Source: Candidatus Hydrogenedentota bacterium
GTDB lineage: Bacteria > Hydrogenedentota > Hydrogenedentia > Hydrogenedentales > SLHB01
Assembly: GCA_045863295.1 (NCBI GenBank)
Contig: BTWA01000004.1
Location: forward strand, 32,001-96,000
DNA: 64,000 nucleotides
Direction of reading: 5' to 3'
A program made the position numbers and the translations under genes. The notes beneath the pieces are model-generated. The model searched no databases. It saw nothing but the letters and a program-made list of their open reading frames with translations, and was not told the origin of the DNA. This document shows, one piece after another, positions 48,140 to 50,398 of this stretch; position 1 is the first letter of the stretch; the number at the start of each line of letters is the position of its first letter.

Positions 48140-48871
48140 ATGCTGCTGAAAGATTTGGGTCAGCGTATTCGCGGCCAACGCGAAAAGCGCGGCCTCAAGC
48201 AACAGGATATAGCCAACGCCCTGAATGTGAGCCCACAAGCGGTCTCGAAATGGGAACGCGGCGAAAACGCGCCGGACATCACCATTCTTTCCGGCTTGGC
48301 GAGGCTGTTGGGCGTTACGACCGACTGGTTGCTCGGCTCGAATGCCGAGGGTAAAGATGTATTTGAAGCCACGGTGCTGGCGACCAGCGTCGACGGCGCA
48401 TATAAGCGTTCGCTGGAAATGCAGCCGCGCGATTTCGCGCTCTGGGCCAATGCGCTTTTCTATCAGTTGACTGAGTTGATCCTCCGGCACGACGGAGTGC
48501 CGGTAAAATACATGGGCGACCGATCGCTCAGTTTCTTTTCAGGACCGGACCACCGCAGACGCGCCGTGGATGCCGCCATGAAAGCGCGAAGCCAAATCGG
48601 GTCCACCCTGCGAATTGGGTTGCACAGCGGTCCCATCTATCTGGGGTCGGTGGGCCATCCGGATTACGCACGGCCCGACATCATGGGCGAAGTCGTGAAT
48701 GTCGCATTCCTTACGATGGAATGGGCAGAGCGCGAAACGAAAAGCGGCATCGCGGCTACCGCTGCCGCCTTGGAAGGATTCGATGAACCGCCCGCGGGCG
48801 GCAAGGATAAGAATGTGAAGTTTCTGGGTCTCGAACGGCCCGTTTCCGTGCGCGAAATCAAGGCAAGCTAA
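48140..48871 (+). CDS. XRE-family HTH regulator fused to a degenerate class III nucleotidyl cyclase domain
   Basis: HTH: GLKQQDIA..LNVSPQAVSKWERGENAPD; cyclase-like: VKYMGD, RIGLHSG, DIMGEVVNVA. Confidence 0.85.
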   Translation: MLLKDLGQRIRGQREKRGLKQQDIANALNVSPQAVSKWERGENAPDITILSGLARLLGVTTDWLLGSNAEGKDVFEATVLATSVDGAYKRSLEMQPRDFALWANALFYQLTELILRHDGVPVKYMGDRSLSFFSGPDHRRRAVDAAMKARSQIGSTLRIGLHSGPIYLGSVGHPDYARPDIMGEVVNVAFLTMEWAERETKSGIAATAAALEGFDEPPAGGKDKNVKFLGLERPVSVREIKAS

Positions 48872-48889
48872 AAACAAGGATCCCACACA

Positions 48890-50341
48890 ATGGCAACCGT
48901 CGCAAAATCATCGGTGTTTCAGGATATCCCCTACAAGGTCGCGGACATGAGCCTCGCGGAATGGGGACGAAAAGAACTGGACATGGCCGAAAAGGAAATG
49001 CCCGGGCTGATGGCCATTCGAGAGAAGTACGCGAAGTCGCAGCCGCTCGCCGGCAAGCGTGTTTCCGGCTCGCTGCACATGACCATTCAGACCGCCGTCC
49101 TTATGGAAACACTGAAGGCGCTCGGCGCGGATGTGCGATGGGCCAGCTGCAACATCTATTCCACGCAAGACCACGCCGCCGCCGCAGTTGCCGAAGCGGG
49201 ATTCCCCGTCTTCGCATGGAAAGGCGAAACTCTGGAGGAATACTGGTGGTGCACCTATCAGGCGCTCACATGGCCGGACGGCAGCGGACCGCAACTCATC
49301 GTCGATGATGGCGGCGACGCTACCCTCCTGATTCACCGTGGCTTTGAGTTCGAAAACCACTTCAACGAACACGGCAAACTCCCCGCAATTTCGAAAGCCA
49401 ACAAGGAAATCGAAATCATCGATACGCTGCTGCACACCGTGCACGCGGAAAATCCGAGCCGCTGGCATGATACCGTCGCGGAATGGATCGGCGTATCAGA
49501 AGAAACGACCACCGGAGTGCACCGCCTCTACCACATGATGCGCGAAGGAAAGCTTCTCACCCGCGCCATCAATGTCAACGATTCGGTAACCAAATCGAAG
49601 TTCGACAACCTCTACGGGTGCCGCGAATCTCTCGCAGACGGCATCAAGCGCGCTACCGACGTGATGATGGCGGGCAAAGTGGTCGTCGTTGCCGGTTATG
49701 GCGATGTGGGCAAAGGCTGTGCCCAAGCTATGCGCGGCCTCGGTTCGCGCGTGCTCATCACCGAAATCGACCCGATCTGCGCGTTGCAGGCCTGCATGGA
49801 AGGCTACCAAGTCACCACAATGGACGAAGCCGCCGCGCTGGGCGACATCTTTGTGACGACGACCGGCTGTTGCGACGTCATCACCGGCGAACACATGAAG
49901 AAAATGAAGGATGAAGCCATCCTCTGCAACATCGGCCACTTCGATTCCGAAATCGAAATGAGCTGGCTCGAATCACAAAAGGACATCAAGGAAATAAACA
50001 TCAAGCCGCAAGTTGACAAGTTTGTCTTCCCCGACGGCAAGTCCCTCATCGTCCTCGCGCGCGGCCGCCTTGTAAACCTCGGATGCGCCACGGGCCACCC
50101 CTCCTTCGTTATGTCGAATTCCTTCGCGAACCAAACACTCGCACAGGTGGCCCTCGCCGTCGATACGGACAAGTACGAGATGGGCAAGGTATACACACTA
50201 CCGAAGGAACTCGACGAGGAAGTCGCCCGCCTTCACCTCGGCAAGCTCGGTGCGAAATTGGAAACCCTGACCAAAGCGCAGTCCGACTACCTCGGCGTGC
50301 CGGTGCAGGGCCCATACAAGCCGGAGCACTACCGGTACTAA
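48890..50341 (+). CDS. ahcY: adenosylhomocysteinase
   Basis: [62 protein letters not shown]. Confidence 0.98.
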
Positions 50342-50364
50342 ATCCGGCCAATGCAACGCACGTT

Positions 50365-50398
50365 ACACCCCCAGGCATGCGCCTGGGGGTGTTTTTTT
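50365..50398 (+). terminator. ahcY terminator
   Basis: ACACCCCCAGGC-ATGC-GCCTGGGGGTGT followed by a T run. Confidence 0.85.

Follow-up and report, generated by a model that had tools for sequence, protein, structure and literature searches.

An XRE-type helix-turn-helix protein with a degenerate class III cyclase domain as a candidate local autoregulator of the ahcY operon in Hydrogenedentota and Latescibacterota

S-adenosylhomocysteine (SAH) is a strong inhibitor of methyltransferases, which makes regulating its removal a central housekeeping task. In the sections of Leyn et al. (2014; PMC4239095) on which we draw, dedicated control of SAH clearance is described in two forms only, the SAH riboswitch and SahR, and mostly for Proteobacteria; the latter being an SAH-responsive, autoregulated member of the ArsR family, found in Alpha-, Delta- and some Gammaproteobacteria, that recognises a palindrome of 20 base pairs (bp) and has a core regulon of ahcY, metH, metF and metK. 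Here, we analyse a 64,000-nucleotide (nt) stretch of the genome of a Candidatus Hydrogenedentota bacterium (contig BTWA01000004.1; hereafter ‘the window’, in which all unprefixed coordinates lie), where a 243-amino acid open reading frame (ORF) on the forward strand, at 48140–48871, directly precedes ahcY, the gene for S-adenosyl-L-homocysteine hydrolase. Its product, ‘the regulator’, joins an XRE-type helix-turn-helix (HTH) to a degenerate class III cyclase-homology domain (about residues 74–240). An earlier note on the same DNA had proposed that this protein is a catalytically dead cyclase, re-used as a sensor of an adenine-containing ligand, which controls its own operon and serves as a regulator of the S-adenosylmethionine (SAM) cycle.

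SahR is the closest system in function. Its HTH is of the ArsR type and its effector domain resembles a methyltransferase, whereas in the regulator Pfam finds only HTH_3, of the XRE type, and Guanylate_cyc, the latter representing the degenerate class III cyclase fold. SahR also governs a regulon of several genes, whereas in the window's genome the site described below is found only at the regulator's own promoter, and SahR occurs in other phyla than does the XRE-cyclase regulator. What the two have in common, as far as the same sections of that source describe SahR, is that a protein, encoded together with ahcY or close to it, acts as transcription factor, regulates itself and binds a palindromic site (all three in our case by prediction); SahR likewise co-varies in its presence with the AhcY route of SAH recycling (PMC4239095). 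The SAH riboswitch, there described as often preceding ahcY-metF operons, resembles our locus in providing dedicated cis-control of ahcY (PMC4239095), and differs in being an RNA element: no Rfam family, hence no SAH riboswitch, is matched at E ≤ 1 in 47000–51500, save for a chance match to a small RNA, nor is any Rfam element found at gathering scores upstream of ahcY in 14 related genomes of the same phylum that have ahcY and lack the regulator. The remark in the earlier note that neither a SAH riboswitch nor a SahR-type regulator is visible here is upheld by Rfam for this region and by Pfam for the regulator. A full-text literature search, subscription journals lying outside its coverage, returned no paper on XRE-cyclase fusions or on their link to ahcY; the regulator would be a one-component regulator with a type of sensor domain not described for such a purpose.

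Our preferred reading, towards which we lean on balance, is that the regulator is a dimeric, local autoregulator of the regulator–ahcY operon in which a dead cyclase pocket senses a metabolite. That it acts as a local DNA-binding autoregulator of this operon we consider quite likely; that the cyclase-like domain is a receptor for SAH or adenosine we offer more tentatively, as a suggestion that may well prove wrong.

Turning to the protein itself, Pfam assigns residues 10–64 to HTH_3 (E 7.8e-17, covering the full model, 1–55) and residues 78–191 to Guanylate_cyc (PF00211; E 2.5e-5), the latter a weak match that is nonetheless above threshold (24.4 bits, cut-off 21.9). A profile built from 84 members of the family matches solved class III cyclases at E ~1e-15 (2w01, 3r5g) and the HTH domains of phage repressors at E ~1e-16 (1adr). 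The AlphaFold2 model of the regulator has a mean predicted local distance difference test (pLDDT) score of 93.6, and Foldseek matches its C-terminal part to Cya2, CyaC and CyaB at E ~1e-12, with template-modelling scores, by target, of 0.70–0.79. The joining of an XRE HTH to a class III cyclase-like domain, as first read in the earlier note, is confirmed: by structure the regulator belongs to the class III cyclase superfamily, though it lacks two defining catalytic features, and its HTH is an ordinary XRE one.

Prediction of the dimer structure, a check proposed in the earlier note, gave a homodimer formed through the cyclase domain with a score of 0.91 (best of three controls, 0.00), a value reached by 20 of 30 proteins solved as same-chain pairs and by one of 23 solved as single chains; as dimers of class III cyclases are already among the solved structures, this pass may reflect likeness or memory and not independent evidence. 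Contacts agree between runs to at least 95%, the pLDDT of the partner is at least 86 and the interface lies within residues 73–233. SAH was included in the run, and the score rates the protein partner only. The regulator thereby resembles true class III cyclases (Cya2, 2w01; CyaC, 1wc0/1wc1; CyaB, 3r5g) in fold and in its predicted head-to-tail homodimer, as well as in keeping the Lys/Asp pair of the purine pocket, the Asn and the second metal Asp; it differs from them in its fused DNA-binding domain and in the absence of three catalytic residues (first metal Asp, transition-state Arg and phosphate Lys), such that, as judged from these residues, activity would not be expected.

Two further families invite comparison. 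The HTH matches that of lambda cI, P22 C2 and 434-type repressors (1adr, 2r1j) at E 1e-16, and in both cases palindromic operators, predicted ones in the case of the regulator, lie some two helical turns apart. Unlike lambda cI- and LexA-like proteins, the regulator carries a C-terminal cyclase fold in place of an S24 peptidase/oligomerisation domain, and it sits in a chromosomal metabolic operon, not in a prophage. Mycobacterial proteins of the Rv0386 type are large cyclase-ATPase-LuxR HTH proteins, of which at least Rv0386 is catalytically active. They too combine a class III cyclase domain and an HTH in one polypeptide, and differ in having the opposite domain order, an HTH of the LuxR type and an ATPase module; we know of no link between them and ahcY.

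Catalysis by class III cyclases is a two-metal reaction that needs both metal-binding Asp residues. We aligned the regulator both to 2w01, by hidden Markov model (HMM), and, by BLASTP, to a canonical FHA-GAF-cyclase that the window's genome also encodes (Guanylate_cyc, 107.7 bits). In each alignment the first metal Asp is replaced by Ser83 and the Arg of the transition-state NxAxR motif by Leu191, just as the earlier note had seen by manual alignment, and in each the purine-specifying pair Lys123 and Asp180, the second metal Asp (Asp127) and the transition-state Asn (Asn187) are retained; in the alignment to Cya2, the phosphate-binding Lys becomes Leu229. The same pattern extends across the ahcY-linked set (58 locus records, representing 55 distinct places and 53 distinct proteins). 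Position 83 is Ser in 33, Thr in 21, Gly in three and Ala in one, and never Asp; position 191 is Leu in 41 and Ile in 17, with Arg in none; all 58 have Asp127, Asp180 and Asn187, so that the claim of a retained second metal Asp and Asn holds for every ahcY-linked member. The companion claim, that the adenine-selecting Lys and Asp are kept, is true of the window's protein and does not carry over to the whole set with respect to the Lys, position 123 being Lys in 39 records, Arg in 17 and Ser in two. Residues specific to the ahcY-linked clade are Y88, L191 and F228, all bulky and hydrophobic.

More distant members of the family retain what the ahcY-linked clade has lost. The metagenome proteins P0127 and P0138 have the full catalytic set D-K-D-D-N-R-K, and both metal Asp residues together with the transition-state Arg are also kept in P0125, P0129 and the homologue at L112:188-931; such members could, on the strength of these residues, be active cyclases tethered to DNA. 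Since distant relatives such as P0127 and P0138 keep the full set, the ahcY-linked clade looks like a derived pseudo-enzyme. The homologue in L112, whose signature reads D-K-D-D-V-R-K, precedes a DEAD-box helicase gene.

In the window, the regulator ends with a stop codon at 48869–48871 and ahcY begins with an ATG at 48890, leaving a spacer of 18 nt (48872–48889, forward strand) that contains an AAGGA ribosome-binding site for ahcY at 48876–48880 and in which no terminator-like site was found. The ATG assigned to the regulator coincides with the N-terminus MxLxxLxxRIRxxRE conserved in 30 homologous loci. The ahcY product (48890–50341, forward strand; 483 amino acids) matches Pfam AdoHcyase at E 2.4e-143 and AdoHcyase_NAD at E 6e-84, and 3′ of its gene lies an intrinsic terminator (50365–50399, forward strand), whose hairpin of 12 pairs, nine of them G-C, and T run are placed at 50365–50392. 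This layout, outlined in the earlier note and confirmed here by coordinates and a terminator scan, fits a single transcript: the spacer is short, there is no terminator before ahcY and there is a single strong one after it. The two genes would then be co-transcribed as a bicistronic operon.

The pairing recurs well beyond the window. Within its phylum, Hydrogenedentota, the regulator gene is found in 35 of 135 species genomes, at 36 places, 32 of which adjoin ahcY: at 29 of 30 loci ahcY is the next gene on the same strand, after spacers of 0–685 nt, the remaining one being cut at a contig end, and three further places adjoin ahcY by their coordinates. In one genus (genomes G072 and G073) the homologue follows an RND efflux pump gene, with ahcY elsewhere, and one place is too broken up for a judgement. 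Latescibacterota, a second phylum, have a homologue in 28 of 168 genomes, with ahcY as the next gene at 20 of 25 loci; here the order regulator-ahcY-metF is seen at 15 of the 16 loci with enough downstream DNA, whereas in the window's phylum metF was found within 3 kb at none of 13 loci. The expectation that homologues would neighbour ahcY and metF is thus realised for ahcY in both phyla, with the exception of sister clades found beside other genes, and for metF in the second phylum only.

These sister clades deserve description. The five Latescibacterota loci without ahcY (L159–L162 and L164) form a subclade nested inside the ahcY-linked clade, and the upstream operator is identical in all five; in both of those examined, L159 and L164, the next gene is threonine synthase (thrC), with an N-terminal zinc ribbon, a tie to the homoserine/methionine branch of metabolism, the assignment in L159, the one that was family-tested, resting on a TIGR00260 score of 217 bits (cut-off 167). 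When contigs were scanned with a full-length alignment, the HTH dominated the search and most of the matches were to unrelated XRE proteins from Firmicutes, with full-length relatives at four of 80 loci; a scan with a four-sequence, domain-only alignment yielded seven metagenome loci, in which the next gene is ahcY in five, purA in one and a DEAD-box helicase gene in one. A second copy of the homologue in one genome precedes a class II aldolase gene. In a FastTree phylogeny, 58 ahcY-linked sequences fall within one clade of 65 leaves (support 0.88), the other seven leaves comprising five labelled thrC, one cut locus and one further representative. The regulator–ahcY pairing spans at least two phyla, plus metagenome contigs, and is not universal. 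A protein-cluster atlas holds sister clusters in Verrucomicrobiota and Planctomycetota, and the family probably extends to these phyla also, as judged from the atlas clusters only.

Two observations concern purA, which directly follows a sister-clade regulator in L116 (3282-5310) and directly precedes an ahcY-linked regulator in L114 (295-2551); these are two of 42 loci searched with the PurA protein, and hint at a connection with adenine nucleotides. We also note that in L026 (G132:C10:61384-62800) ahcY matches in two pieces in different frames, which may be a frameshift or an assembly error, and that in L013, L014, L016, L017, L019 and L024 the spacers between regulator and ahcY, at 50–145 nt, contain G+C-rich hairpins but no copy of the putative operator described below; some of the hairpins precede T runs and might act in attenuation or partial termination.

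Upstream of the regulator, cross-genome conservation delineates a putative operator, gCAACGActccgTTATTG (48053–48070, forward strand), containing the imperfect 17-bp palindrome CAAC-N9-ATTG (48054–48070). A second, distal operator-like box, beginning TCAACC (48032–48049, forward strand) and half-conserved, starts 21 bp 5′ of it. The palindrome's right arm overlaps a predicted −35 element, TTGCCG (48068–48073, forward strand), proposed from consensus only, whose TTG lies 17 nt before a conserved TAnnnT; the latter corresponds to a predicted −10 element, TAGCAT (48091–48096, forward strand), and is found exactly 20 nt after ATTG in a motif-anchored alignment. A strict promoter scan found no promoter at the regulator. 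Among 34 upstream regions, CAAC-N9-ATTG was missed only in L022 and L031, leaving 32 with the motif. The anchored alignment takes in 57 of 65 upstream regions, which reduce to 54 distinct segments with the consensus TCAACC-N15-TCAAC-N-A-N3-C-N-T-N-ATTG-N20-TAnnnT: the operator's right arm supplies the TTG of the −35, the only part of that element to be conserved, and the distal TCAACC is held at a fixed offset of 21 bp, becoming a full CAAC-N9-ATTG palindrome in the second phylum and remaining half-conserved in the window's.

From 30 distinct sites we built a position weight matrix, and scanned it over the whole 6.3-Mb genome (12.7 million positions). The regulator's own site has the top score genome-wide (24.4), and loci outside the training set score 14.7–24.8, including those linked to purA, to the helicase and, presumably, to thrC. 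By comparison, the highest scores in the 550 nt that precede ahcY in the 14 genomes of the same phylum with ahcY and no regulator are 10.9 on the coding and 14.9 on the opposite strand. As compared across these genomes, the operator-like site tracks the regulator gene, not ahcY. The palindrome is probably what the regulator binds, and comparison lends good support to the predicted DNA binding and operon control; the autoregulation envisaged in the earlier note gains support from the conserved palindrome in the promoter of the regulator itself.

Only one other site in the genome scores 24 or above, at C11:46217-46239 (reverse strand; 24.3), 13 nt before a VOC/glyoxalase-like ORF (45746–46222, reverse strand); it overlaps the stop codon of the gene upstream. 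We considered this as a second target and rejected it as probably due to chance, the site being too close to the ORF for the same promoter mode. No site was found upstream of metK, metH or metF (best scores 5.7, 8.6 and 3.0, respectively, against 24.4), a second S-methyltransferase gene or purA, nor is there a second operator between regulator and ahcY in relatives with long spacers. The lack of sites at metK, metH and metF points to a local regulator and not to a master of a SAM-cycle regulon.

In the mechanism that we propose, the N-terminal, XRE/lambda-cI-type HTH would bind the 17-bp imperfect palindrome overlapping its own −35, with the distal box 21 bp upstream as a ‘helper’, and would control the bicistronic regulator–ahcY transcript that ends at the terminator downstream. 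The class III cyclase fold would no longer make cyclic AMP (cAMP), having lost its first metal Asp, transition-state Arg and gamma-phosphate Lys, and would serve to hold the regulator as a head-to-tail dimer; the two HTH domains of such a dimer fit the 17-bp palindrome, and the distance of 21 bp between the sites is compatible with cooperative binding to a single face of the helix. Lambda cI at OR2/PRM and class II activators alike use a site near −41 that overlaps the −35. The proximal site is likewise predicted to be centred near −41, and by this analogy activation is as possible as repression by occlusion.

The former substrate pocket, at the dimer interface, would in turn sense a small molecule, such that expression of SAH hydrolase follows the load on the methyl cycle; candidate ligands would be SAH, adenosine or a related adenine nucleoside. 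Small-molecule sensing is most probably the use to which this pocket is put: its residues are kept without the catalytic ones, and members of the family are repeatedly paired with single metabolic genes, which together make ligand sensing the most likely function. Both the sensing and the identity of the ligand, be it SAH, adenosine or other, are what we infer from these patterns. SAH is the most economical candidate, as the substrate of the enzyme controlled and the effector of the analogous SahR; adenosine comes next, as a product of AhcY and one that matches the purA link in the sister clade.

Saying this, a number of observations weigh against a methyl-cycle sensor of this kind. With ahcY present in 124 of the 135 Hydrogenedentota genomes and the regulator in 35, ahcY does not need the regulator. 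Genomes of kin are not independent, and the locus counts given above overstate the number of independent events. Close relatives adjoin thrC, an RND pump gene, purA, a DEAD-box helicase gene and a class II aldolase gene, none of them genes of the SAM cycle. The degenerate operator pattern is not enriched inside the window (18 matches, 15.1 expected); what carries the signal is solely the conservation of its position across genomes. The adenine-selecting Lys is not universal, with Arg or Ser at position 123 in 19 of the 58 ahcY-linked members. The clade-specific Y88, L191 and F228 could fill the former pocket instead of lining it, and the conserved T111, H173, N187 and Y88 form part of the predicted dimer interface and may have been kept for dimerisation and not for a ligand.

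The points on pocket and interface residues bear on the explanation that best survives alongside our own, namely that the cyclase-like domain is only a dimerisation scaffold and the protein a ligand-independent autoregulator, for instance a negative-feedback repressor that keeps the level of the operon constant. An interface that runs through the cyclase domain and takes in T111, H173, N187 and Y88 is what such a scaffold would show, the three hydrophobic residues could plug the former triphosphate site, and variation between Lys, Arg and Ser at position 123 is readily accommodated. We nevertheless think this unlikely. All 58 members keep D127, D180 and N187, which in true cyclases form the pocket for the substrate, while the purely catalytic residues are lost, and selective retention of this sort is the pattern expected of a binding site without chemistry; furthermore, tight and repeated pairing with ahcY, ahcY-metF, thrC and purA is typical of effector-responsive local regulators.

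The variety of neighbouring genes bears instead on a different explanation, in which the signal is unrelated to the methyl cycle (cAMP, ATP or energy charge, or another nucleotide) and ahcY is one of several outputs. Members with the same HTH and the same type of operator do head purA, thrC, helicase and aldolase genes, purA would suit an adenine-nucleotide signal better than it would SAH, and the canonical FHA-GAF-cyclase encoded in the genome implies that cyclic-nucleotide signalling probably exists there. We hold this to be improbable, and rather more so than the scaffold: loss of the residues that bind triphosphate and metal argues against ATP, the ahcY-linked proteins form a clade of their own with their own pocket residues, and the entry of metF into the operon in the second phylum points to the methyl cycle.

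It is very unlikely that the regulator is a still-active adenylate or guanylate cyclase tethered to DNA, as a bifunctional enzyme and transcription factor; the Pfam score does fall just above the Guanylate_cyc cut-off, and an active ancestor is plausible given the D-K-D-D-N-R-K set of P0127 and P0138, but Ser83, Leu191 and Leu229 stand in place of the metal Asp, transition-state Arg and phosphate Lys, and neither Asp at 83 nor Arg at 191 occurs in any of the 58 ahcY-linked members. Least credible of all is that the regulator is a chance neighbour of ahcY, an XRE repressor of the kind found in phages, mobile elements or antitoxin systems: the best NCBIfam and PDB matches of the HTH are indeed phage repressors and antitoxins (RstR, DicA, P22 C2), but these matches fall below the family cut-offs and concern the HTH only, the gene is single-copy in the window's genome, no phage genes were found near it among the window's ORFs with Pfam, and the same order of genes is seen in two phyla as well as in metagenomes.

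Should the sensor mechanism be correct, the XRE-cyclase family would supply the missing ahcY regulator for several uncultured phyla. It would also show that the class III cyclase fold can meet a hitherto unknown fate, in which chemistry is lost and the nucleotide pocket kept for metabolite sensing, with the catalytically complete metagenome relatives suggesting a route from DNA-tethered cyclase to pseudo-enzyme sensor. A stronger version we regard as conceivable yet somewhat doubtful, namely that the cyclase domain is a dedicated SAH or adenosine receptor, spread over several little-studied phyla. This would be the first known case of a cyclase fold turned into a metabolite sensor for transcription and, next to SahR and the SAH riboswitch, a third independent way of making ahcY respond to SAH; the sister clades beside thrC, purA and other genes would then represent a broader class, as yet unexplored, of one-component sensors built on pseudo-cyclases and responding to other ligands. 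A protein of 243 amino acids, a defined operator and a short list of candidate ligands make a cheap experimental test feasible.

Finally, we describe the surroundings of the operon. Divergent from the regulator is a gene of the DinB family (47541–48056, reverse strand), whose longest ORF, with a TTG start at 48056, would run into the operator region; its true start is probably further in. Further upstream, the region 43045–47528 (forward strand) contains a cytochrome c biogenesis pair, ResB-like (44191–45435) and CcsA-like (45432–47528), with, 5′ of this pair, a 381-amino acid lipoprotein-like ORF that has an internal duplication and is without a Pfam match. Beyond the ahcY terminator, the region 50351–54224 (forward strand) encodes a DUF1353 protein, a rhomboid protease that carries two zinc ribbons at its N-terminus, a TPMT-like, SAM-dependent methyltransferase (52167–52841), and a PadR regulator, after which comes a membrane protein without a Pfam match.

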